Sequence record: OZ035743.1
Source: Phapecoctavirus DIJ07P1
Length of the DNA: 64,000 bases
Direction: 5' to 3' (one strand)
In this document: in pieces, positions 9,187 through 50,901 of the stretch
Layout: each line of letters opens with the position of its first letter
How positions within the stretch are numbered: the stretch's first letter is position 1
Notes under the pieces: model-generated
Seen by the model: only the letters and a program-made list of their open reading frames with translations
Told to the model about the DNA's origin: nothing
Databases searched by the model: none
Made by a program: the position numbers and the translations under genes

Positions 9187-9674
9187 TGGAAAGTGAGATC
9201 TTACCAGGTGACGATACAGATTGGGAAACCATTATCAAAAAGATGATGGACCTTGAACAAGTTCAAATCGAAGCTGGTTTTTTAACAAACAAAAGGCATC
9301 CTGAATCAGATCTCACTATTCCTGCAATAGCAGCTATTCAACAATATGGTAATGAAACAAACAACATACCTGCTCGCCCTTTTATAACAGATGGTGCTGT
9401 TATCTCACAGAACAATATCGCTAAAAAGATGAAGCAGGTTTTTGCAAATTACCTAATGAACAATGTTGGGTTGGCTGTTTTTGAGCCTATAGCGAGAGCC
9501 TCTAGAGAAGGAATAGCTCAAGCGATTGCAATGCAACGTTATCGTCCTTTATCTCCTGTGACAATTAAGATACGACAAGATAAAGGCAACTATTCTAATC
9601 ATATCTTAATAGATACGGCATATATGATAAATGCAATCGAAACAAAAATCACAAAAAGCAAGTCTAAAAAATAA
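9186..9674 (+). CDS. hypothetical head-tail joining protein
   Basis: start overlaps upstream stop (ATAATGG). Confidence 0.3.
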   Translation: MESEILPGDDTDWETIIKKMMDLEQVQIEAGFLTNKRHPESDLTIPAIAAIQQYGNETNNIPARPFITDGAVISQNNIAKKMKQVFANYLMNNVGLAVFEPIARASREGIAQAIAMQRYRPLSPVTIKIRQDKGNYSNHILIDTAYMINAIETKITKSKSKK

Positions 9675-9675
9675 C

Positions 9676-9704
9676 TTGCATAAACTTTGTTTTTGATGTA
9701 TACT
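9676..9704 (+). promoter_or_regulatory. sigma70-like promoter TTGCAT-N17-TATACT
   Basis: -35 at 9676-9681, -10 at 9699-9704. Confidence 0.4.
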
Positions 9705-9719
9705 AAAAAGGAGATACAA

Positions 9720-10136
9720 GTGTTACTAGATCAATTTACTCTCCTTGATCTAACTGAATACCAAGGTCGTAGACGAGTCTACAAAGAGGCAGTTGGTTCA
9801 GTTATTGCTAACTTAGAAAGTAGTGTAGAATATGAACCATTTACTATTGAAGCGGCAAGCTTACAACCGATATCTGGTAAAACACTGAATGCACTACCCG
9901 AAGGTTACAGATCTAAGGCTCAATATAGTTTCTGGACTAAAACAGAGATGAAGGGGTTACAACAAGGAACAGAACAGTTATCAGATCAAATATTGATAGA
10001 TGGTAAATGGTATTCTGTTTATTCCCTTAAAGATTGGACCAGAACATCTTTCTTAGTCCATCATCACTGTGTTGCGATATTAGACGATCAAAACAACTCC
10101 TGGTCTTATGGAACAGAAGGAGGAAACTTTGGCTAA
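9720..10136 (+). CDS. hypothetical tail completion protein
   Basis: probable GTG start at 9720 after AAGGAG at 9707-9712 (track start 9687 lies inside the promoter). Confidence 0.3.
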   Translation: MLLDQFTLLDLTEYQGRRRVYKEAVGSVIANLESSVEYEPFTIEAASLQPISGKTLNALPEGYRSKAQYSFWTKTEMKGLQQGTEQLSDQILIDGKWYSVYSLKDWTRTSFLVHHHCVAILDDQNNSWSYGTEGGNFG

Positions 10137-16748: not shown

Positions 16749-16757
16749 GGAGATAAT

Positions 16758-17768
16758 ATGGCAGAAAGAGAGTATACAAAAGCTCCTGCCCCTAATTTAA
16801 ACAGGGCATACAAATTATTAATTGGTTCTGCCACAAACACAATACAGAAGAGAACTAAGAACTCGGCATTTAAATCTACAGTAGATTTGGATACCAAGTT
16901 AGGGACAACAGAAAAATCCTCTTCTAATTTGTATTTGTTGCAAGACCATCAAATAACCTTCAGTATTAAGAAAGATAATAACAAAGATCCTAACCAAGCA
17001 GAGATTGTAGTTTATAACCTTTCGGATGATACTGTTAACTATATAAACCGTGGTATCCGAAATAACTTGGCTGTTGCTTTAGCGGTAGGATACGAAGGTG
17101 AAGAGTTGGTTATGATCTTCAAAGGAACTATCCAGTGGGTTAGTGATACTTTTGACTCGGTAGACAGGAAAACCACTTTACACTGTTTGGATGGCGGTAT
17201 TAACATTGCAGAAGCAAGAACAAGTCGCAGTTATCCAAAAGGAACTAAAATCAAACGTGTTGTGACAGATTTGGTAAAGGATTTAGGAACTACAGAAGGT
17301 AATATACACGTAGACAATGATCAAACCTTATCTTCAGCAACAGCTATGTGTGGAAACACTTCACATTACCTAGAACATATTTGTAAAAGTATTGATCACA
17401 ATGTGTCAATACAAGATGGATCTGTTTATGTCACTCCTCGTTCACAAATGTCTAGTGCACGTAGCGCCTATATTAGCCCTGAAACTGGTCTGATAGGAAG
17501 TCCAGAACCATTCCACAACGATATAAAACCTACTAAAAAAGTTACCAAGTCCTCTAAGAAGGCAAAGAAACCTACAGACGGTGTTAAATTCAAATGCCAA
17601 ATGAATGGTGCAATATTACCAGAAAAAACAATCTGGTTAAAAAGCCGAGATTATGATGGTCCATTTAAAGTTGTTTCTGTTTCTCACAATGGTGATAAAG
17701 AGGGTAAAGAGTGGGTTACTGAAGTGGAGTGTGTATCCGTGTCTGAAATAATGACTAAGGAGAAATAA
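16758..17768 (+). CDS. tail/baseplate hub protein (gpD-like by position)
   Basis: 336 aa, immediately precedes gpV-like spike. Confidence 0.35.
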   Translation: MAEREYTKAPAPNLNRAYKLLIGSATNTIQKRTKNSAFKSTVDLDTKLGTTEKSSSNLYLLQDHQITFSIKKDNNKDPNQAEIVVYNLSDDTVNYINRGIRNNLAVALAVGYEGEELVMIFKGTIQWVSDTFDSVDRKTTLHCLDGGINIAEARTSRSYPKGTKIKRVVTDLVKDLGTTEGNIHVDNDQTLSSATAMCGNTSHYLEHICKSIDHNVSIQDGSVYVTPRSQMSSARSAYISPETGLIGSPEPFHNDIKPTKKVTKSSKKAKKPTDGVKFKCQMNGAILPEKTIWLKSRDYDGPFKVVSVSHNGDKEGKEWVTEVECVSVSEIMTKEK

Positions 17769-38532: not shown

Positions 38533-41130
38533 CTAGTGACAGGACGCCCAGGAGTTACCCACATCATATCCGGCAGTAAGCTGAACATTAAGATTGTAAA
38601 ATTCTCCAGCCTTAGTAACAGCTAAAGCAGCAAGTTCACCTGCCCGACTATAGGCTGTAAACCATCCACCTTTGGGAGATTCATGAATGTTAGCCCAAAT
38701 TTGCCCTGTCTCTTTTTCCTTATTATGCTTCCATTCTTCAACTTTAGCAAGGCATTCTTTATCAATTTTCTTTTGTTCTTCAGGATCGTCTACTTTCTTC
38801 CAACCTAATGATTCAGGTGAAAACCATTTAAATTCTACAAGGTTACGAGAAACTTCAAGCTGGGCTTCATCGTGATATGCAATCATTTGTTGCACGAAGT
38901 CTTTATTCTTCCAGTCATCTTTAAAGAAGTCAACACTTAGCCCTTCTTCTTCGATCATGTCGTCATAAATAACCATTGCACGTTTAGCACAGATAACCCC
39001 ACCACTTTGGAACAGAGAGTTAAGAATCGCGTGAGCAGAACGAGTAGGAACCTTACGACCGTCAATACCCAAAACATACTGTTTACCAGTCTTAACCCAG
39101 AAATCGTTTAAACGTTCTTTAAGACGCGCCAGTGGGAATGCAGCTTCCCAGAAAGCATCGAACACCAGTTGCCCTGTGTATTTATCGCTACCAATTGTTT
39201 TAGCAACCTTGTCTGCTTGTGCACCATAAGTGATCCCGTATTTAACAGATTTCGCCGGACTACGTTCAAATTTACGCCCAATAGTATCTGTAATACGTTT
39301 TGCCATCATGGTATGAACATCGTTAGGCTTCTCTAACAAGAGAGCGTTACAGTATTCATGAGGCTCCGGTTCGTAGCGCCAACAATAATGCGACTCAATC
39401 TTTGCTTCCAAAGAGTCGAAGTCATAACCGATCTGGAAGTATTTAGGAACTTCTACACCAAACAAGTTACGCATCTCCCATCCAAACAAAGATGTGACAC
39501 GAGGGATATTGGCTACAGACCTATGCTTCATACGAGAGGTTGCAGCATCACATGTAGCGGCTGGTGTAGGAATACGCCCATCCGCCCTTACTGCGGCTAA
39601 GAAACCTTTATCGTATTCTTGATCTTCTTCATCTTCTTCCCAATCAGCACCGCCACCTAAAATAGAGTTCCTACGATGCTTATACGTTAAGTATTCTACA
39701 ATCTGAGTAGCATAAGGAAATTTCTCACCCAAAGCTTGCAGGTTAGGACAAATTTCTTTTTCCTGGCCTTTGGTAAAACATGGGTTAGTCAATACTTTAA
39801 GACCGCGACCTTTACCTTTTGCTATACGCTCTTGAATCTTCCTTTCCAAGGTTTCCGGTGTGCACTCCAGATGATCACAACGATCCTGACAAAAATTAGA
39901 AGATAGAGTTTGCTCAACGTAAGCTCGAATACCTTTCTGAAGTTCTTCCTCGCTCTTTTTAATCTTGGTGCCAGATTTAAGAGTCAAGTCTTTATCTTTA
40001 TATTCAGACGGTACCCAACCTAATCCTACAAGCCAGTTTTTAATATGGGTTGTATCGTTCAATGTTGCAGGGATGTTAGGATCACATAGAGGTTCATCTG
40101 CTGCAACTGGCAGTTTCCACTCTTTCCCCAACATAACTAACCACCAATCGCCATCCCTCTCTTCCAAATGACCATCATGTTTCTTAGCAAAATTAATCAT
40201 ATGGTTAGTTGGCTCTAAGTTCTTTTTAATTTGCAACTTAGGTGGAATAAAAGCCTTAAGATAACCTTTTGTTGCTGGTTTAGGTGGCAAAATAGGCTCA
40301 ACGAGTAAACGAAGACGCTCCATTTCTGCATCCAAAAAAGCAAGGTTCTCTTCTGCTTGCTTCATGTTAAAAGCAAACCCACGGTGTTCCTGGCGTGTAA
40401 TAATGTCTGCTACACGTTGTTCAAGTTCAAATGGACCTTCCCATTTATCATAATCGCCCCATTCTTCCATAAGGTAATTATATACGCTCGTATTGGCTTT
40501 GTTGTCATAGATACAGTAATAAAGCATATCCGCAGCAAAAGTCTTAAATCGATCTTCTTCTGGAATCTCTTTACGGAAATCTATTTTTACATCACCACCT
40601 GCCTTTCGAGAAAGTGCTGCCAAACTATGTCCTGATTTGCCCTCAATCTTTCGATCTGGGTTTAACACTTTACTCAAAATCAAGGAGTCAATAAGTTTTA
40701 CCTTATTTTTGCCCCACGTATTATATTTAACACTGTAATCTAAGCCATAAAACAGTTTTGTAGCCAACCAGTCATAGTTGATACCGTTGTGAGCCACAGC
40801 CATTTCAACTAGATATTCAGGCTTATCTTTAAAATAACCTTCATGATTAATAAAATCTGGGAAATCTTTTAGTTGAAAATGTGTGTAATCTTGCGCCACA
40901 TATTCTTTAAGAACATATGTGTATTTACCATCTGACTCTTCATAAGGACGCCCATCAAAGATGTATTTAGGGCCATCGTGGAAAGCTACTATTTCTCCTG
41001 TTTCATGGTTCTCTAAGACAATACAGTGCATTTGAAATGTGTCTTTGAGACGATAAGGACTAGCTAAATAATCGATAGTGTCATTATTCAACAATCCGTT
41101 TGCTTCAATATCCCATGTAAACTTACTCAC
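38533..41130 (-). CDS. family A DNA polymerase, T7 gp5-like, with 3'-5' exonuclease
   Basis: exo motifs DIEANGL and VAHNGINYDWLATKLF; pol motif A GYDFDSLEAKIESH, motif B RSPAKSVKYGITYGA, motif C AYHDEAQLEV. Confidence 0.9.
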   Translation of the reverse strand: MSKFTWDIEANGLLNNDTIDYLASPYRLKDTFQMHCIVLENHETGEIVAFHDGPKYIFDGRPYEESDGKYTYVLKEYVAQDYTHFQLKDFPDFINHEGYFKDKPEYLVEMAVAHNGINYDWLATKLFYGLDYSVKYNTWGKNKVKLIDSLILSKVLNPDRKIEGKSGHSLAALSRKAGGDVKIDFRKEIPEEDRFKTFAADMLYYCIYDNKANTSVYNYLMEEWGDYDKWEGPFELEQRVADIITRQEHRGFAFNMKQAEENLAFLDAEMERLRLLVEPILPPKPATKGYLKAFIPPKLQIKKNLEPTNHMINFAKKHDGHLEERDGDWWLVMLGKEWKLPVAADEPLCDPNIPATLNDTTHIKNWLVGLGWVPSEYKDKDLTLKSGTKIKKSEEELQKGIRAYVEQTLSSNFCQDRCDHLECTPETLERKIQERIAKGKGRGLKVLTNPCFTKGQEKEICPNLQALGEKFPYATQIVEYLTYKHRRNSILGGGADWEEDEEDQEYDKGFLAAVRADGRIPTPAATCDAATSRMKHRSVANIPRVTSLFGWEMRNLFGVEVPKYFQIGYDFDSLEAKIESHYCWRYEPEPHEYCNALLLEKPNDVHTMMAKRITDTIGRKFERSPAKSVKYGITYGAQADKVAKTIGSDKYTGQLVFDAFWEAAFPLARLKERLNDFWVKTGKQYVLGIDGRKVPTRSAHAILNSLFQSGGVICAKRAMVIYDDMIEEEGLSVDFFKDDWKNKDFVQQMIAYHDEAQLEVSRNLVEFKWFSPESLGWKKVDDPEEQKKIDKECLAKVEEWKHNKEKETGQIWANIHESPKGGWFTAYSRAGELAALAVTKAGEFYNLNVQLTAGYDVGNSWASCH

Positions 41131-41924
41131 TATTCCTCCTTTCTAATGTTCTCCAGAACCCACTGAAGTTCTTTTAAACTTAAACTTCTTACTCCCGCAG
41201 TTTTACTAGCTTCAGCTTTAAGTAACGGGTAAGCCTCAATGATACGCGTTTTAAGATCAGAAGTCAAGGCTTTTAAAAAATAGGTAGATGCTTCAGATAA
41301 AGAATCTTCTTCTGATAACACTTTACCTGCACTTGCTCCCGCTCTCCTAACGGCTATATCGTAGTCTTTACTGTTACCTAATACGAATAGTCGATTCTCT
41401 CCTAAAACAACGGGAGAACGCTTCTCGTTGCGTTTAATCCATATCTGGAATACACAAGGAACATCCCAAGGTTCTCCATGAAGAATAAAAGATCCTTTTG
41501 GACATTCTTCTTCGTAAAGAAGATGCATATGGGGATTTAGTTTGTGTGCAAAAAAGATTTTTTGAAATGTGCGAGGCAAGATAAAACAAATACCACCTTC
41601 GTTATCCAGCATTTCAGCACAATGGTTAAAGAATTTAATGGCAAGACTAGCATTTTTTCCAAATGGAGGATTACCGACAAAAGCAGTTACACTACCAACA
41701 GACTCAACAGATTGAGCTAAAAAATCTGCCTCAATACAATCTTCAAACTTAGGGTCAATATCAAAAGAAGTTATGTTTTTAAAACAAGAAGAGAAAGCTC
41801 CTTCTCCCGCAGATGGTTCTACGTAGTTAGCTTCCTCTCCAAAAATTTCTTTGATCTTATCACATAAGAACCCCGCATAAGCGGGGTTAGTGTAATATTG
41901 ATCAAGTGTGTTCAACTTGCTCAA
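41130..41924 (-). CDS. N6-adenine methyltransferase (gamma-class motif order)
   Basis: motif I EPSAGEGAF then motif IV VGNPPFGK; stop overlaps polymerase start. Confidence 0.5.
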   Translation of the reverse strand: MSKLNTLDQYYTNPAYAGFLCDKIKEIFGEEANYVEPSAGEGAFSSCFKNITSFDIDPKFEDCIEADFLAQSVESVGSVTAFVGNPPFGKNASLAIKFFNHCAEMLDNEGGICFILPRTFQKIFFAHKLNPHMHLLYEEECPKGSFILHGEPWDVPCVFQIWIKRNEKRSPVVLGENRLFVLGNSKDYDIAVRRAGASAGKVLSEEDSLSEASTYFLKALTSDLKTRIIEAYPLLKAEASKTAGVRSLSLKELQWVLENIRKEE

Positions 41925-42460: not shown

Positions 42461-44236
42461 ATAGTTGCTATCCGTAGGCAAATTAGCAGGATTGTTGAAA
42501 TACTGCTCTTTGTCATGCAGAGTTGCAGTTCTAATATCATAGTAAAACTGCCCTGCTGGACCAGTCTCTGAGAACTCACGGTTTTTTAGGATAAAGCAAT
42601 GAGTCGTATTTCGTTCTACAGGGTCTTCAGCGGCTTTATCTCGTTCCAAAGCCAAGGTAATACCAGCACCTTTAGCCAAGAAACTACTACCCATTGCATC
42701 GTCCTCTGTTAAGTGTTCATTGCCACCATTAGCCGATTTCTTAACGTGTGAGATGACGATAATAGTTATAGCATACTCTTTCATGATGCGCTTCAACCAT
42801 GTTGCTAACTCTTCCTGGGCTTGAACATCCATACCAGAAAGCAAATCAGAATAAGGGTCGATAACAAGAATTGTTACTCCAAAATAGATGATCATCTCCA
42901 AAACTTTTTCTTTGATAGACTCCACATCTGCTCCACGATCATCACACACATAAAAACGTGGTGATCCATCTTCTCTTTCGTAAAAATCTAGAATTTTTTC
43001 TTTATTCTCTTCCAGGATTTGAAATTTCTCTTCCGGTGTTTTCCTATGTAGAGGAATGTGCAGGAAAGAGGACAACAGGTTACGAGAATATTTCTTATAG
43101 GTTGCTTCCAATGACAGAATACCGAGGGTATGTTCTGGGTGTGCAACGATAATATGTTTGGTGATCTCGTTCACCATCAAAGTTTTACCGATACTGGTCT
43201 TTGCCAGGATAACTGTAATCTCTTCCTCTACTAAACCACCACCCAGCATATTTGCAGCAACACGCATAAAAGGAGGCAAGGTAATCATCTTGGATTCCAA
43301 GCATTCTAATGCAGCTTCATACAAGACATTAGAAGCATAAACACCTGCTGGGGTGTATAGACGAGCACTCCAAAAAGCTTTTACGAAATCTTTTGCACGA
43401 CCTTCTTCCAGATACTGATTGGCATCCTTAAGATCCATCTGCATACGGTAGACTTTGTTACGAGGCAGCACCTTAACAATATTTTCAAATGCCTCATTAC
43501 CCGCTTTGTCATTATCCATGCAAACAATAATCTTCTTAAATTTTTCAAAGAAAGGATATTGTGCCTGAACTTGTTTATACATACTGGTTTCACCAGTTGT
43601 GCCACTAACTACTGCTGGAAGTTCATATTTGTTGTCCAAGTTTTCAGACAGCATCTGATAAGCTGCCAGAGCATCGTGTTCACCACCTGTAATTACAACA
43701 GTATGAGAACGGTCTGCAAAACGAATTTGTCCAAAAAGATCTACATCTTTACCTACTTGACCAATAGGTTTACTGAAATCTTTAGGATGAATACGACGCT
43801 TAAAACCAACCAATTCTTTACCGATAGTAGTCGGATATAAACAACTTTCTACTACCATCTGATCCCCTTCCTGACGGTATTCATAACGAACACCATAGAA
43901 AGATGAAACTTTTTCTTTAATACCTCGATAACCACGTGGGTTGGTTGATGTTTCTTGAACAATTTTACGATGAATCTGTTTATTAAATTCCGAACCCACA
44001 ATCTCCTCCTCTTCTTCTAAAACTTCACCATTTTCTCGTAACCATTCTACGCTAGGAATAGTGTATTCACACGCAAAGCACTTAGCACCTTTATGCTCTC
44101 CATTAGAATCTAATCCATAAACCATCAGGTTATTACGAGAGCGATCCTTGCCATTTTTCATGCAGCGCGGACAACCTGTATGCCCTTCCTTGCTAAGATC
44201 AACATCAAATCCATATTTAGTTATAATGTGCGACAC
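42458..44236 (-). CDS. primase-helicase, T7 gp4-like
   Basis: N-terminal zinc ribbon CPRC...CFAC, TOPRIM-like VVITGGEHDALAAY, Walker A ILAKTSIGKT. Confidence 0.8.
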   Translation of the reverse strand: MSHIITKYGFDVDLSKEGHTGCPRCMKNGKDRSRNNLMVYGLDSNGEHKGAKCFACEYTIPSVEWLRENGEVLEEEEEIVGSEFNKQIHRKIVQETSTNPRGYRGIKEKVSSFYGVRYEYRQEGDQMVVESCLYPTTIGKELVGFKRRIHPKDFSKPIGQVGKDVDLFGQIRFADRSHTVVITGGEHDALAAYQMLSENLDNKYELPAVVSGTTGETSMYKQVQAQYPFFEKFKKIIVCMDNDKAGNEAFENIVKVLPRNKVYRMQMDLKDANQYLEEGRAKDFVKAFWSARLYTPAGVYASNVLYEAALECLESKMITLPPFMRVAANMLGGGLVEEEITVILAKTSIGKTLMVNEITKHIIVAHPEHTLGILSLEATYKKYSRNLLSSFLHIPLHRKTPEEKFQILEENKEKILDFYEREDGSPRFYVCDDRGADVESIKEKVLEMIIYFGVTILVIDPYSDLLSGMDVQAQEELATWLKRIMKEYAITIIVISHVKKSANGGNEHLTEDDAMGSSFLAKGAGITLALERDKAAEDPVERNTTHCFILKNREFSETGPAGQFYYDIRTATLHDKEQYFNNPANLPTDSNY

Positions 44237-44248
44237 TTTGTTCTCCTG

Positions 44249-44527
44249 TTAAAATGGTTCGTTAGTCTCCATCATATATTCTGCTTCTAGTTCTTCCATA
44301 TGCTTTCTAAATTGGAAAGCAATTTCTGCTACAGTTACATTTAAATCTTTTTCAAAAACTTCTGTAGAGCCTTCATAAAAACGAATACCGTCAATTAAAA
44401 GCCCTCCGTGGTAATCCCAATCACTTTCACGAGAAAGCGGGTTAGGCTCTTCATAATAGTAATCCACCTCCACAACTAAGGCTTTCCCGTTACGAGTGGT
44501 GTATTCAAAATCAAAAGTGTTAATCAT
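44249..44527 (-). CDS. hypothetical protein
   Basis: ORF track. Confidence 0.25.
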   Translation of the reverse strand: MINTFDFEYTTRNGKALVVEVDYYYEEPNPLSRESDWDYHGGLLIDGIRFYEGSTEVFEKDLNVTVAEIAFQFRKHMEELEAEYMMETNEPF

Positions 44528-45471
44528 TATAGCTCCTCAAATAAAAGTCTACGACGCTCATTCAACACATCAATGTGATAATGAGTCCTGACATACTTAG
44601 CTAATGCTAATCCTTTCTCCATGCAAACATTAGGAGCACTTAATAAGTATTCCGTAATATCTTTCCACTCGGAAGGTGTTTCAGCAAAGAATAACAAATC
44701 TTTAAACTCTTGTGTATGATAATTCTCACGAGGAGAACAGATCAAAGGTAAACCCTTAGCACCTGCCTCAAGAATTTTAAGATTGCTTTTTGCATTATTA
44801 AACACGTTATCAATCAATGGCGCAAGACTGATTTGATGACCATCGTAAGATTCCATGTAGTTGGCATATGGTCTTACACCTTCATAAACACAAGTTGGTG
44901 CGACATTTTCTCTGATTACAGACCATTCACGACTACTTAAAACTTCAGAATCCCTACGAAAACCACATATTGTAAGATCTTTACCAAAATCAGGCAAGAT
45001 AGCCAAATCTTGTTTATGTGTTTCACTTCCAGCCCAGACTAATGGAGTTTTGGAGTAGCGATCACGGGTCAACACAAATTGACCTTCATCGTAAGGAAGT
45101 CCATTAGGGATTATGTGCACATTATCATTGTATTGTGAAAGTTCAACTTGCAAGGCAGGTGTCGTAGTTGTAACAAGGTCACTGTGCTCTAAAAACCATT
45201 TTAAATGTTCACGAATACCTGATTCAAAAATACCTTCTAACATGTGTCCTTTTGGAATAACTAAAGAGTCATCCAAATCCATAACCATTTTAAAGCCTAG
45301 GTTTTTAAGGGCTAAAAAGCCCTCTTTACCTTTTGTTGGCACTCCGTTAAAAACGAAAACGTTGTGTTTAGGTTGTGAAGAGAACTGCCTTGAGTAAGGC
45401 AGCACTACCCTATGGAAATCGCAGACACTATAATTGATTCCGTTACGATTGTCAAGAATTATTTGTCCCAT
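44527..45471 (-). CDS. glycosyltransferase-like protein, paralog A
   Basis: paralog of the adjacent gene (shared NLKILEAGAKGLPLICS, PLVWAG, HRVVLP blocks). Confidence 0.4.
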   Translation of the reverse strand: MGQIILDNRNGINYSVCDFHRVVLPYSRQFSSQPKHNVFVFNGVPTKGKEGFLALKNLGFKMVMDLDDSLVIPKGHMLEGIFESGIREHLKWFLEHSDLVTTTTPALQVELSQYNDNVHIIPNGLPYDEGQFVLTRDRYSKTPLVWAGSETHKQDLAILPDFGKDLTICGFRRDSEVLSSREWSVIRENVAPTCVYEGVRPYANYMESYDGHQISLAPLIDNVFNNAKSNLKILEAGAKGLPLICSPRENYHTQEFKDLLFFAETPSEWKDITEYLLSAPNVCMEKGLALAKYVRTHYHIDVLNERRRLLFEEL

Positions 45472-45478
45472 ACTTCAC

Positions 45479-46426
45479 CTACAAACTTTCAATAACCTGG
45501 CGTCGCAATTCGTTTGCATCTGCTAGATTATAGTGTGTTCGAACATGTTCCGCTAAGAACAAGCCACGATCTTCCCGATAGTTTGGATTGCGAAGAAGCT
45601 TAACAATTTCGTAATGCCATTCTGCTTTGTTCTCTGCGTAAGCAACAGCACGAGCATCTACAGGGTTAAAATAAGGTAATACCTTAGAACAAACAATCGG
45701 AATACCCTTTGCTCCAGCTTCCAGGATTTTGAGATTACTTTTACAATTATTAAAATCATTATCTACCAAAGGAGCTATAGCAATAGCATGACTTTCGTAA
45801 ACACTCATGTAATTATCTAAATCTTTTACAGCAGCTTTATATTTAGCGTTTGGTAAATTTCTGCGAATCTTAATCCACTCTTGTCCCGTGATGCTCTGTG
45901 ATGCTTCATATCCCGCAATAGTAAGAAGTTCATCATCGAAAGTATTAGAGACTAGTCGTAAGTCGGGTTCGTGACTAGCACCGCCAGCCCATACAACAGG
46001 GGTACCGGATGAACGATCATTTGACAAAGTGAATTGTCCACTATCAAAAGGAAGTGCATTTCGGATCACAACAACATTCCTATTTAAGTGACGGATCTTA
46101 TATGCCAAGTATTCCGTAGTCACAATAACCACATCAGCAAGCTTAACCATAGCCACAATAGCATGAGTGTTTGACTCGTATAAACTTGCCAAATAATGCT
46201 CTGGATTAAGTTGGTAAAAATCATCTAAGTCTACAACAATCTTAACACCTTGACGTTTCAAAGATAAAACGTATTCTGCACCTTTAGAGTGGATACGGTT
46301 AAACACAACAACATCTTTCTTAGGTTGAATATTATTGTTGTTAAATGGCATAACAATACGATGATAGTCACAACCGCTGTGAGGTTTTGCATCAATTTTT
46401 AGTTTAGACCATTTTTTATTTGACAT
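45479..46426 (-). CDS. glycosyltransferase-like protein, paralog B
   Basis: same length and conserved blocks as 44527-45471 (NLKILEAGAKGIPIVCS, PVVWAG, HRIVMP). Confidence 0.4.
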   Translation of the reverse strand: MSNKKWSKLKIDAKPHSGCDYHRIVMPFNNNNIQPKKDVVVFNRIHSKGAEYVLSLKRQGVKIVVDLDDFYQLNPEHYLASLYESNTHAIVAMVKLADVVIVTTEYLAYKIRHLNRNVVVIRNALPFDSGQFTLSNDRSSGTPVVWAGGASHEPDLRLVSNTFDDELLTIAGYEASQSITGQEWIKIRRNLPNAKYKAAVKDLDNYMSVYESHAIAIAPLVDNDFNNCKSNLKILEAGAKGIPIVCSKVLPYFNPVDARAVAYAENKAEWHYEIVKLLRNPNYREDRGLFLAEHVRTHYNLADANELRRQVIESL

Positions 46427-47099
46427 GTGCTAGTGCCTCCTCATAGGAAATTCGGATTTTCCCATTTTTAATATCCTCTAAAGATGCTTTATATTCTTCC
46501 CAGTTAATCCCAATAGCAGCTTCTTTCTCTTCTTTTGTCAGATTAGCAAAAGGCATAGGATTGTTTCCAAAAACATCGTCTGGGTGGATATAAGCCATGA
46601 TACGAAGTGGACAAGGTGTTGCCTGAATACCATGATTCAAACCAGCAGCTTTCAAACGGTGTCCCCATTCGGCATCTTCAAAACCATAACCGTGAGTGTA
46701 AGGGCGGAAATAACCCATCTTCTCAACAACGGCACGAGAATACATTGCAAATTGACACATTGCAAGTTCCCAGAGAATAACTTCTCCTTTGCTTCCAACA
46801 ACTTTATCTTTGAAGTACTCCGGCATACCAAAAAAATCCCATCCTCCAGAAACAGCTTGATCTACAAAGTATGTTTCCCATCCTTCCATGACTGGGTAGC
46901 AATCATCATCAAAAATAAACCAATAATCATAACCTTCTTCATAAAACTGGTGCATAAGTTCATTCCTGGCGTAAGCTACACCTTTACGATCTGGATCGTT
47001 GAATACTCGAAAATCTGCATGTGGATCTGTTACAAGATAGTCTTTAAGTGGACGGACACCTACAGTGATAACACCCACTCCGATTTTAATATTTTCCAT
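46416..47099 (-). CDS. GT-A-type glycosyltransferase-like protein (DxD motif)
   Basis: YWFIFDDDCYP acidic motif in a beta-alpha context. Confidence 0.35.
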   Translation of the reverse strand: MENIKIGVGVITVGVRPLKDYLVTDPHADFRVFNDPDRKGVAYARNELMHQFYEEGYDYWFIFDDDCYPVMEGWETYFVDQAVSGGWDFFGMPEYFKDKVVGSKGEVILWELAMCQFAMYSRAVVEKMGYFRPYTHGYGFEDAEWGHRLKAAGLNHGIQATPCPLRIMAYIHPDDVFGNNPMPFANLTKEEKEAAIGINWEEYKASLEDIKNGKIRISYEEALAHVK

Positions 47100-47107
47100 T
47101 TTCTCTC

Positions 47108-47671
47108 CTAGATAGTTTTACTGTGATCGTGACAGTGTAATAAATGATGTATAGACCGTTGAGGATTTGTTTGACCTAATCTGTAAATGTGAAACAGATA
47201 CATTCCCCGCATCAATCCTAACCTCTTTCCTTTTTCATGTAAAGTGCGAGAGAAAATTAGGTCGAATTGGATAGATTTTTCTTCGAAAGGAATTTCATTC
47301 CACAATGATTTTCTAAAAAGCAAAAAGAAACCTGCCAGAGGTGTTCCGAAAGGAACTTCTTCAACACTCACTTTATGATATTCTCTTGCAATCTTAGCAT
47401 ATTCTATATGGTTTAGAATATCTGGATCATCGTTAATTTGGTTAGAGAAAAGCTGATAACCACTACCTAACCTGTTACAAGTTGCACCTATTACATCAAA
47501 AGGCGGGTTTGACATAACAAGCTCTTCAAGCATAGATGGTTGATCAGGCAGGAGGAACATTGTATCGGTATCTCTTAAGCACACCCAACTATCATCTGGA
47601 AGAACGGCAATAGCTTCATTGATAGCCTTGCCGATATTTCCTGTCAGATAGGGAGTAATATAATAAATCAT
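47108..47671 (-). CDS. hypothetical protein, possibly nucleotide-sugar transferase-like
   Basis: VCLRDTDTMF acidic motif; weak. Confidence 0.25.
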   Translation of the reverse strand: MIYYITPYLTGNIGKAINEAIAVLPDDSWVCLRDTDTMFLLPDQPSMLEELVMSNPPFDVIGATCNRLGSGYQLFSNQINDDPDILNHIEYAKIAREYHKVSVEEVPFGTPLAGFFLLFRKSLWNEIPFEEKSIQFDLIFSRTLHEKGKRLGLMRGMYLFHIYRLGQTNPQRSIHHLLHCHDHSKTI

Positions 47672-47687
47672 TCTCCCCTCCGTTATA

Positions 47688-47879
47688 TTAACTGTCAGCT
47701 ACAATCCCACGTTTAATCATTTCTTGTTGGATTTGGATGACACGATCTCGTGCTTCCATATATTCTTTAAAAGATTCTTGGAGATGGTCACGAGCTACAT
47801 CCCGTAGTTTAATCAGCTTGTCGTTTGTCACTTCTTGAAGAGAGATCTCGCCAGTTTCATTGGTCCCAAGCGTTTTCAT
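47688..47879 (-). CDS. hypothetical small protein
   Basis: ORF track. Confidence 0.2.
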   Translation of the reverse strand: MKTLGTNETGEISLQEVTNDKLIKLRDVARDHLQESFKEYMEARDRVIQIQQEMIKRGIVADS

Positions 47880-48135
47880 TTACAACCTCCTTAATAGCTA
47901 CTGCACAGTTCTTACAAATACATTGACCTTTGTTCTTAGAAATTTCAATGTAAGGTTCATTTTCGTTTTCTCCGCGTCGTGAATCGTATATTACAGTATT
48001 GAAGCAGACAACGCAAATGTTTTTAATAACGACATATTTTTGCACTTTTTGTTTAGTGCGAAAATTGACTTCAATAACTTCTCCCATCAGTGAATCTCCC
48101 CTAAAATGTTGTTTTGAGACATTACTGCGGAGCAT
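47857..48135 (-). CDS. small Cys-rich (zinc-finger-like) protein
   Basis: CVVCFN...CICKNC. Confidence 0.25.
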   Translation of the reverse strand: MLRSNVSKQHFRGDSLMGEVIEVNFRTKQKVQKYVVIKNICVVCFNTVIYDSRRGENENEPYIEISKNKGQCICKNCAVAIKEVVNENAWDQ

Positions 48136-48993: not shown

Positions 48994-49596
48994 TTATGGA
49001 CATTCATACCATTCTTTTTTACCACCGAAGGCCATCACCACATCGCAAATATCCAGACCAGCTTTACCTACACCATATGCTTTCAGTTTCCATTCCCCAT
49101 CTTCACGAACCAAGGAAGCCACGTGGCAGATTGTGTTGCCAGCTACTTCAGGAGCCAGGAAGTCAAAATCCAGAATTTCCACATTGCGCTCGGAGTCGAA
49201 GATTTTAAGCATACCTTCAGAAGCATGACCAAAACGTTTCAGACCTGTATCATCATCAATGGTCAGAACAAAGGCAATCTCTTGTGCATCAGGAGAGATT
49301 TTAGCCAGAGTAATATCAATCTGCTCCATGCTGCCAGTTCCATCACGAACATCGTCACCAGCGAAGGTAGAACGTTCAGGATCAAACTTGTTAGCATAGC
49401 AAACCAGATGACGTGCAGACAGCATTTCAGGATTGCCAGCGGCATTGTGACGACAAACCAGTGCACTTACATCCAGATCCAGTTTAGAATCAGATTTCCA
49501 AGAGAATTCCAGGCGCAGTTCTTTCAGAGCCGGAGCAACTTTCTTCAGGGAAATTTTTTCGCTAGAGCCTTTTTTCAGGGAAATTTTATCAGTCAT
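48994..49596 (-). CDS. terD: TerD-family protein
   Basis: aligns by eye along its length to E. coli TerD (ISLKKG..ISLKK, LDLDVSA, GDDVRDGTGSMEQI, EGMLKIFD, DGEWKLKAYGVG). Confidence 0.85.
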   Translation of the reverse strand: MTDKISLKKGSSEKISLKKVAPALKELRLEFSWKSDSKLDLDVSALVCRHNAAGNPEMLSARHLVCYANKFDPERSTFAGDDVRDGTGSMEQIDITLAKISPDAQEIAFVLTIDDDTGLKRFGHASEGMLKIFDSERNVEILDFDFLAPEVAGNTICHVASLVREDGEWKLKAYGVGKAGLDICDVVMAFGGKKEWYECP

Positions 49597-49881: not shown

Positions 49882-50110
49882 TTCTTCCTCCTAATGTTAT
49901 CTCCGGTTTGTATATACGAAGAATTATAGCATTTTCATTTTCTTTGTCAACCCATTCTTCATAATCAGGCCATACATGAATCTCTACTCTACTTACAATA
50001 TCTTCCATTCGCACAGTCCCAATGAAATACTCTTTGAGACTGCGCATAATGAAAGCTTCTCTCTCGCGCCAATAATTTTCTATGACTTGAGAGGCAAGCT
50101 CGTCGATCAT
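49862..50110 (-). CDS. hypothetical small protein
   Basis: ORF track. Confidence 0.25.
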   Translation of the reverse strand: MIDELASQVIENYWREREAFIMRSLKEYFIGTVRMEDIVSRVEIHVWPDYEEWVDKENENAIILRIYKPEITLGGRSVKLRN

Positions 50111-50901
50111 TTTTTAGCACCTACTTTAACAACCCACTCTCCGAACTCTTCAGATAAGAGTTTGTCATAAAGCTCTGAATCTGTCAAGTCTAAATCTTTA
50201 ATGCCAATAAAACCAACATTATCATAAGCATTTGCCAGTTCTTTCAGGAAGCCAAACTTCTCATTACCAACGCCAACCATGAACCAATAAATAGGTTTAT
50301 TCTTATTCTCTTCAATAAGACGACGAACAGCACTAGGATCACCATTCTCACCATCCGTCTGGAAGAATACAACACCAGGGGTAACGTCAGCACCTGGTTC
50401 AGACACAGCTACAACCTTTTCACGCTCTACAGATACTGTTTCAGTTTTACCAAGCAGACGATTAAAGAAGCCTTTCTTTGGAGCCTCCTCTTGTACCACT
50501 TGTTTAGTGGTAATATATTTGGTAACAGTGCCAAAATACTCATCGTAGATATCTGCCATTACAGGGGCGTAATTTGTTCCACCTCCGATACGAACATTGC
50601 GCATACATTTACCAACATAGTCATCGTAAACGTCTGCTGTTGCTGGAGTAAGCTCTTGGGAACTCGTATTGAAGGCCCACATATCAATTTGTTGATTATC
50701 GTCGAACAGCATACCAAAAGGAAGCAGTTTACCTACAAAATCACTCACTACCCCACTAGAATATAGACCATGCATACTACCAGAAATATCTAGAGCACAT
50801 GCTACACGAAGAACAATCTTACCTTCATTCAGGTTCTTATTCTTTTTCAGAGAGAAAGCAAGGTTTTCTTGACGTTTTTTCAGGCTGATTTTCTCGGACA
50901 T
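50107..50901 (-). CDS. vWA-domain protein with TerD-like N-terminus (TerY-like)
   Basis: MIDAS motif LDISGSM, later GGGTNYAP and FFQTDGENGD; N-terminus ISLKK...SLKK resembles TerD start. Confidence 0.6.
   Translation of the reverse strand: MSEKISLKKRQENLAFSLKKNKNLNEGKIVLRVACALDISGSMHGLYSSGVVSDFVGKLLPFGMLFDDNQQIDMWAFNTSSQELTPATADVYDDYVGKCMRNVRIGGGTNYAPVMADIYDEYFGTVTKYITTKQVVQEEAPKKGFFNRLLGKTETVSVEREKVVAVSEPGADVTPGVVFFQTDGENGDPSAVRRLIEENKNKPIYWFMVGVGNEKFGFLKELANAYDNVGFIGIKDLDLTDSELYDKLLSEEFGEWVVKVGAKK

Follow-up and report, generated by a model that had tools for sequence, protein, structure and literature searches.

What do four adjacent glycosyltransferase-like genes contribute to a large myovirus in which they stand beside the replication genes, and which molecule receives the sugar? 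The genes are located in a 64,000-nt stretch of DNA from Phapecoctavirus DIJ07P1 (sequence record OZ035743.1), here called the window, which covers part of the genome of an E. coli myovirus of the phAPEC8 type (Phapecoctavirus, Stephanstirmvirinae), and they form a close-packed glycosyltransferase (GT) cassette on the minus strand. A first-pass annotation, made from the letters of the window alone, had counted three to four GT-like genes and had favored a role in DNA modification. Our comparisons indicate that all four genes encode bona fide GTs, and their context in other phages suggests that proteins of the phage particle, not the DNA, are the sugar acceptor. The reading that we rank first, at somewhat less than even odds (about 0.45), is that the cassette glycosylates phage structural proteins and that released virions carry surface glycans. 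The four genes, whose coordinates are exactly those given by the first-pass annotation, are as follows.

47108..47671, minus strand: ORF4, 187 aa, predicted minimal GT-A-fold glycosyltransferase, first gene of the cassette; invariant D34 and D36 (DxD) and H161
46416..47099, minus strand: GT-A, 227 aa, GT2-like; invariant DDD (residues 64 to 66) and YGxED (138 to 142); 11-nt overlap with GT-B2
45479..46426, minus strand: GT-B2, 315 aa, GT4-like GT-B, paralog of GT-B1
44527..45471, minus strand: GT-B1, 314 aa, GT4-like GT-B; invariant KSNLKxLE, putative nucleotide-sugar motif

Enzyme classes of the cassette proteins

The first-pass annotation described two tandem paralogs of about 315 aa, and GT-B1 and GT-B2 are indeed related, with 42% identity (E = 2e-78). 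Both have two Rossmann-like domains arranged in GT-B topology. In an alignment of 26 sequences of the GT-B family, K228-S-N-L-K232, L234, and E235 are invariant, and the KSNLKxLE motif is assigned to nucleotide-sugar binding by analogy with GT4 enzymes. The two proteins stay below the Pfam gathering thresholds (Glyco_trans_1_2, 23.7 against a cutoff of 25; Glyco_trans_1_4, 22.8 against 27); closer homologs have precomputed PF13524 matches, and the PHROG matches of both proteins are very strong, that of GT-B2 to phrog_7162 having an E value of 3e-149. GT-B2 is nearer than GT-B1 to the homologs of other phages, with 52% identity to the GT-B of a Serratia prophage (BLAST against L004, L005, L027, and L028).

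The description of the third protein as DxD containing and GT-A like is likewise supported. It has a GT-A Rossmann-like fold, F61-I-F63-D64-D65-D66 and Y138-G-x-E141-D142 are invariant in the alignment, and its PHROG matches to GT families are strong (phrog_2456, E = 6e-79; phrog_1579, E = 8.5e-13). Its Pfam matches to TAGT, GT2, and Glyco_transf_7C are below the thresholds, as is that to Glycos_transf_2 (14.5 against 23.3). ORF4, which had been listed as a weak fourth candidate, turned out to be firmer than claimed, with a GT-A Rossmann-like fold and an invariant D34-x-D36, and the count becomes four GTs rather than three to four; it has zero Pfam matches. A kinship of ORF4 with the 227-aa GT-A was considered and rejected, because hhalign finds no detectable relationship between them, which indicates distinct GT-A lineages.

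Fold and profile searches had been proposed as a check of these assignments, and fold comparison and PHROG together place all four ORFs among the GTs. PDB sequence and profile searches with all three families returned nothing meaningful, and fold comparison alone worked there; NCBIfam and PADLOC gave no matches. None of the four proteins has a convincing transmembrane (TM) segment, the maximum of a 19-residue Kyte-Doolittle window being at most 1.65. The gene calls are not new, and several GenBank and RefSeq records already annotate these genes as glycosyltransferases. What the present analysis adds is the mobility of the cassette, the recognition of a large unclassified ORF4 family, and a genomic context that points to virion glycosylation.

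An exhaustive profile search retrieved 984 ORF4-type domain representatives (50% identity), of which 723 have E values of 1e-10 or lower. The domain occurs as a stand-alone protein of about 180 aa or in fusion with another GT domain. Of the 31 long members, 21 contain TOD1/MUCI70, 5 contain GT2, and 1 contains Methyltransf_24, and in the long member P0086 a Glycos_transf_2 match covers the ORF4-like region (E = 2e-11). Methyltransf_24 domains also occur as neighbors of the ORF4 domain. To judge from these profiles, the ORF4-type proteins are a large unclassified GT-A family that lacks a Pfam model and is newly defined here, and the family could be used as a genomic marker. A narrow, pattern-based contig scan for ORF4 relatives found one contig of a metagenome-assembled genome, which is a near-identical phage fragment.

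Genomic context and the sugar acceptor

The context that bears most directly on the acceptor is found in small phages. A prophage of Serratia sp. M24T3 has ORF4, GT-A, and GT-B in the same order (41%, 37%, and 52% identity, respectively), co-directional and tightly packed in a late operon with holin/endolysin genes on one side and HNH-TerS-TerL-protease/capsid genes on the other. The P22-like contig L005 (Logan SRR29836460) has GT-B and GT-A genes between TerL and portal, and in L006 genes for a GT-B, a GT2, a PLOD-type GT, and a DegT aminotransferase come after TerS. Four IMG/VR contigs (L030 to L033) carry ORF4 homologs that adjoin head genes, namely prohead protease and capsid in L030 and portal in L031 and L033; those of L032 lie between capsid and portal, together with a 438-aa GT-A-like partner. 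In the cultured Cellulophaga phage phi12:1, a Methyltransf_24 gene and a GT::ORF4 fusion are located between portal/minor capsid and prohead protease/major capsid protein (MCP) genes, and in Streptomyces phage Zuko a sugar epimerase and a GT-B homolog are directly upstream of TerL and portal. The homologs are within or beside the head/packaging module in all nine small-phage contexts, which represent at least five lineages. These relatives indicate that the cassette is mobile among tailed phages, and its placement is lineage specific, being in the replication module here and in the head/packaging module in the small phages.

A capsid type shared between the cassette-bearing small phages and the window phage was considered and rejected, as their capsids are unrelated. 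The "nucleotide kinase" beside the GT-B of L005, which seemed to tie the cassette to nucleotide modification, gives weak evidence of such a link; the small protein is of the DUF3310/T7 gp1.7-like type, in our view a common phage family. It abuts the GT-B and shares its PHROGs with the Phapecoctavirus "nucleotide kinase." Another gene of L005 codes for an Nmad5 protein ("nucleotide modification associated domain 5," E = 2e-41); the Nmad5 and DUF3310/T7 gp1.7-like features of this contig are at 16754-17359 on the minus strand and 9558-10004 on the plus strand.

In large phages, tblastn searches found the GT cassette in 139 to 141 phage records and rmlC (at least 60% identity) in about 129, with an identical genus breakdown for the two: Phapecoctavirus, phiWec179-like phages, phi92-like Justusliebigvirus, and Klebsiella and Citrobacter relatives. 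The same searches gave no cassette match in Vequintavirus phages. The core in large myoviruses consists of ORF4 and GT-B, followed by a gene for about 90 aa and the primase, while GT-A and the second GT-B are variable; the phi92-like phages share the cluster at 66 to 76% identity. The closest annotated relative has a complete RmlA-D set for dTDP-l-rhamnose, outside the window, and the phage RmlA-D set was noted by Olsen et al. (PMC7552041). ESCO37, a viable Phapecoctavirus, is without RmlA and RmlB and has kept the cassette, which suggests that the phage pathway supplements the host supply and is not indispensable. Across the region, identity to coliphage genomes of the Phapecoctavirus or phi92-like kind is 98% or higher for several GenBank records whose labels read Acinetobacter phage vB_AbaM_ABPW7, Dompiswa phage TSP7_1, or Campylobacter phage (B15, C3, A150, etc.); these host labels seem doubtful and may reflect contaminating coliphages or mislabeling.

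Two GT-A and two GT4-type GT-B enzymes, paired with a phage dTDP-l-rhamnose pathway, would constitute a soluble cytoplasmic cassette for glycan assembly. The enzyme classes, paralogy, conservation, mobility, co-occurrence with Rml genes, and head-module placement in small phages are observed, while the choice of donor, the sequence in which the enzymes act, and most of all the acceptor are inferred. One enzyme would prime an acceptor residue on a structural protein, most plausibly of the head and possibly of the tail, and the remaining enzymes would lengthen a short oligosaccharide that probably contains rhamnose, with dTDP-l-rhamnose from the phage Rml enzymes as one donor. A glycan length specific to each lineage would follow from the duplicated GT-B and the optional GT-A, and the variable gene content, with ORF4 and GT-B as the core and the others optional, fits glycans of variable length. 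The position in the replication module and probable early transcription are no obstacle to glycosylation of the particle, because the capsid GTs of the chlorovirus PBCV-1 are soluble and expressed early (PMC9614988).

The preference for DNA modification expressed in the first-pass annotation was based on the placement of the cassette in a DNA-metabolism module. The placement itself was described correctly, with the cassette lying between the primase-helicase and the lysis/Ter genes and near a methyltransferase, which has an NPPF motif. The preference did not stand up to the comparison, as no hydroxymethylase was found, the DNA of Phapecoctavirus and phi92-like isolates is cut by HincII, phi92-like phages are highly susceptible to restriction-modification (RM) systems, and the placement is lineage specific. 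The choice that it offered, between DNA bases and host surface glycans, was also too narrow, since it overlooked the glycosylation of virion proteins; host-glycan remodeling stays a live rival.

If DNA were the acceptor, the GTs would put rhamnose or other sugars on modified bases and help the genome evade host nucleases, which we consider highly improbable. The DNA glycosyltransferases that are known use 5-hydroxymethyl-pyrimidines as acceptors, or else sugars that such bases already carry. The sole thymidylate-synthase-like protein is a flavin-dependent ThyX/Thy1 (phrog_85), and no hydroxymethylase, TET, or JBP protein is present in the PHROG-based annotation of PQ433349 (1 to 50 kb and 75 to 150 kb), a nonexhaustive check, as that annotation contains many small proteins listed only as hypothetical; the region from 50 to 75 kb of that record is inside the structural-gene block of the window. 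HincII cut 39 of 42 coliphage isolates, and the only three that resisted were the three Tevenvirinae (PMC10269720). The sequenced collection of that study includes five Phapecoctavirus and three phi92-like phages, and Phapecoctavirus and phi92-like isolates gave HincII restriction fragment length polymorphism patterns (PMC10269720). In addition, the BASEL study describes phi92-like phages as "exceptionally susceptible" to RM systems "despite a putative dTDP glycosylation machinery" (PMC8594841).

The proteins themselves point in the same direction. None was found to belong by sequence to a DNA-GT family (T-even alpha- or beta-GT, TAGT); the TAGT match reaches 19.2 bits against a cutoff of 27.5, and this match and that to phrog_842 (T2/T6 DNA-GT), both below threshold, are confined to some 40 residues at the DxD motif. 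Among the structural neighbors the T4 DNA GTs rank only midway, and the isoelectric points argue only weakly against DNA binding. Glycosylation of the genome at large is therefore very unlikely, and a sparse, site-specific DNA modification is possible. The analysis corrects a suggestion in the literature that DNA glycosylation is what the dTDP-rhamnose pathway is for.

Two features of the DNA-metabolism genes are recorded here as separate observations. The ThyX (PQ433349 21315-22313, L003, outside the window) is divergent and unusually long (332 aa), with a Pfam Thy1 match on residues 22 to 174 only (E = 4.5e-8). At least three DNA-methyltransferase-like proteins are encoded, one in the window (41130-41924, minus strand, with the NPPF motif) and two in PQ433349 (1035-1718 and 8136-8645; phrog_757 and phrog_799), and these several methyltransferases occur despite the high RM sensitivity described for the phage group.

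Host-envelope remodeling has a claim from the folds. Soluble GTs at the cytoplasmic face of the inner membrane would modify lipid-linked intermediates or lipid A-core (lipopolysaccharide [LPS] core, enterobacterial common antigen [ECA], or O-antigen units), and the added rhamnose or other sugars would hide phage receptors on the infected cell, on debris, or, for prophage versions, on the lysogen. The closest structural neighbors of GT-B1 include enzymes with undecaprenyl- or other lipid-linked and LPS acceptors (PglH/WlaC, the C. concisus Und-PP GalNAc transferase 8dqd, PimA, WbnH, WaaG, and WaaB), and those of ORF4 include RmlT, TarP, and TarS. dTDP-rhamnose is a classic O-antigen precursor, peripheral GTs of such a kind require no TM segment, and the receptors of these phages are ECA and LPS outer-core glucose (PMC8594841). 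The ORF4 homolog of L031 comes after a pectate-lyase-like beta-helix protein, and some small-phage copies are moron-like, on the strand opposite the head genes. Set against this, no GtrA/GtrB/GtrC-type flippase, membrane GT, or phosphoglycosyl-transferase is linked to the cassette in the contexts examined, and neither a Gtr-type flippase nor a membrane GT is near it in the window or in the annotation of its relative. The Serratia prophage cassette is in the late operon and not by int/att, which favors lytic expression over lysogenic conversion; full remodeling of the surface is not expected to be effective within a single lytic cycle (PMC11990801); and Vequintavirus reportedly uses the same receptors yet is without the cassette. 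On balance, we regard the host envelope as an unlikely target, and if it were the target, virulent phages would possess in the cassette an unusual means of masking receptors.

A further group of acceptors consists of a nonstructural host or phage protein, modified in the manner of effectors (compare EarP and NleB), an RNA (a tRNA base, for example), or a small molecule. Many of the best structural matches of GT-B1 act on small molecules (sucrose-phosphate synthase, BshA, TreT, GlgM, and BGluT), the cassette is located in an early/replication region downstream of a strong sigma-70-like site, as host-takeover functions often are, and PHROG files all four genes under "moron, auxiliary metabolic gene and host takeover." Neither four GTs nor the recurrent GT-GT fusions and the company of methyltransferase, DegT, and epimerase genes, which indicate oligosaccharide assembly, would be required for one regulatory glycosylation, and such an acceptor leaves the head-module placement in small phages unexplained. 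We hold it to be rather improbable.

The glycosylation of virion proteins, which we prefer, has to be weighed against several findings of its own. In the window phage the cassette adjoins primase and polymerase genes, not structural genes, and the top structural neighbors of GT-B1 use small molecules or lipid-linked glycans as often as proteins. The nine small-phage contexts are not fully independent, as L030 to L033 and phi12:1 are probably related. No significant homology to gp108-110 of mycobacteriophage Che8 was detected beyond the generic GT-A nucleotide-binding/DxD region, which makes that parallel an analogy. A literature search found no report of glycosylated virions among phages of Gram-negative bacteria, including any virion protein of Stephanstirmvirinae, and nothing relevant on phage rhamnosyltransferases or on the function of these genes. 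A candidate acceptor signature, the Thr/Ser-ending C terminus of the MCP, was rejected, because the same ending is present in the capsids of Vequintavirus, Seunavirus, ICP1, and Pakpunavirus, which lack the cassette.

A wider form of the virion-protein reading, that Phapecoctavirus and phi92-like virions are coated with rhamnose glycans by an unrecognized mobile cassette and that the ORF4-type enzyme marks virion glycosylation across tailed-phage lineages with Gram-negative, Bacteroidota, and actinobacterial hosts, is put forward tentatively, as a possibility that may well fail. If this wider form holds, the glycosylation of phage particles would be a general phenomenon rather than a mycobacteriophage oddity. 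If these enzymes glycosylate virions, phages of Gram-negative bacteria would have their first example of it. In ESCO37, the glycan would rely on host dTDP-rhamnose because RmlA and RmlB are absent. Phapecoctavirus, Justusliebigvirus, and phi92-like coliphages are common in therapeutic cocktails or among therapy candidates, and virion glycans would bear on antibody neutralization and phage pharmacokinetics and could influence dosing, repeated treatment, and which host is used for production.

Layout of the locus and neighboring genes

Positions 44000-48000 of the window are 98 to 98.8% identical to dozens of GenBank phage genomes. The cassette is flanked on one side by the primase-helicase, a family-A polymerase, and the NPPF-motif methyltransferase and on the other by a Hydrolase_2 endolysin, TerD, and vWA-TerF. 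Three further features belong to its immediate surroundings.

44249..44527, minus strand: small acidic protein, 92 aa, pI 4.2; phrog_4240
47688..47879, minus strand: small conserved protein, 63 aa, directly upstream of ORF4; phrog_5932
49923..49950, minus strand: putative sigma-70 promoter-like site, TTGACA-16-TATAAT with extended TG, from a pattern scan only

The ATG of the 92-aa acidic gene overlaps the stop codon of GT-B1 (TAATG), with a GAGGAG Shine-Dalgarno sequence just upstream, which points to translational coupling. A gene for 87 to 89 aa is present at the same spot, between GT-B and primase, in large-phage relatives (L008 to L011), and the acidic protein may be an accessory of the cassette. 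The 63-aa protein has matches of 48% identity directly upstream of the ORF4 homologs in two distant large-phage contigs (L027 and L028); its membership in the cassette is uncertain. The site at 49923-49950 is the sole 12/12 match to the sigma-70 consensus within 9 kb in the pattern scan and is the nearest strong candidate for the start of a leftward transcript through the Ter, lysis, GT, and replication genes. The GT run itself contains no terminator-like sites.

Tellurite-resistance-type genes are present in this virulent phage, with TerD at 48994-49596 and a vWA-TerF-like gene at 50107-50901 of the window. The relatives L008 and L009 also have TelA, TerC, and a Band_7 protein, and the Ter set immediately precedes the endolysin and the cassette, a position conserved across the subfamily. 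The family-A DNA polymerase ORF (window 38533-41130, minus strand) encodes 865 aa compared with 1110 aa in the closest annotated relative, PQ433349 (81255-84587), a difference that suggests an insertion/deletion polymorphism of the gene between near-identical phages, perhaps an intein or a homing element, and in Klebsiella phage KP2025 the polymerase is annotated in pieces. The GC skew changes sign at about 36 kb, at the switch from the plus-strand structural genes (1 to 35.8 kb) to the minus-strand replication/metabolism genes. No tRNA genes are present within the window; the genus Phapecoctavirus has been reported with 10 to 13 tRNA genes elsewhere in the genome.

Comparison with known glycosylation systems

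The GtrABC systems resemble the cassette in being phage-encoded glycosylation that alters glycans relevant to adsorption (PMC11990801). They differ in that the Gtr proteins are integral to the membrane and use bactoprenol-linked glucose in the periplasm, whereas the window proteins are soluble, with no linked flippase or membrane GT. The T-even enzymes (alpha-GT and beta-GT of T4 and the beta-glucosyl-HMC-alpha-GT of T2/T6) and TAGT share folds with the cassette proteins, show weak local profile matches to them, and are likewise GT-B or GT-A enzymes among DNA-metabolism genes. In contrast, the window phage is without a hydroxymethyl-base pathway, the DNA of its group is restrictable, and the scores are below the thresholds; it has four enzymes and a deoxy-sugar pathway, compared with one or two glucosyltransferases in those systems.

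Closer to the proposed role are the mycobacteriophages. Che8 gp110 and Corndog gp38 were reported to be essential for capsid glycosylation (Freeman et al. 2023, as cited in PMC12363180), and mycobacteriophage virion glycans, as presented in the same source, shield particles from antibody binding (PMC12363180). The genes for Che8 gp108-110 immediately precede HNH/cos/terminase, and gp108 unites a GT-A and a methyltransferase in one protein; a run of soluble phage GTs, including a GT-A with a methyltransferase, by HNH/terminase is also what the small-phage versions of the cassette look like. The GT genes are linked to head/packaging genes in the nine small phages, whereas the cassette of the window phage abuts the primase. 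Outside its own group, the only cultured-phage matches of the window GT-A are glycosyltransferases of mycobacteriophage cluster F, which are distant and confined to the GT-A domain (tblastn). Orthology of the cassette to Che8 gp108-110 was rejected, since BLAST gives E = 0.002 over the GT-A core only and hhalign probabilities are at most 2.4%, and the resemblance appears to be a convergence of design. Che8 also has no GT-B, while the window phage belongs to a group with Gram-negative hosts and has its own dTDP-rhamnose pathway and a cassette in the replication module.

PBCV-1 (A064R, A061L, and A111/114R) offers a likeness in a virus-encoded, soluble, and early multi-GT machinery that places a rhamnose glycan on the major capsid protein (PMC9614988). 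Its A064R combines two rhamnosyltransferase domains with a methyltransferase and builds the rhamnose-containing end of the capsid N-glycan (PMC9614988), and this GT + GT + methyltransferase modularity is comparable to the fusions and neighbors of the ORF4-type domain.

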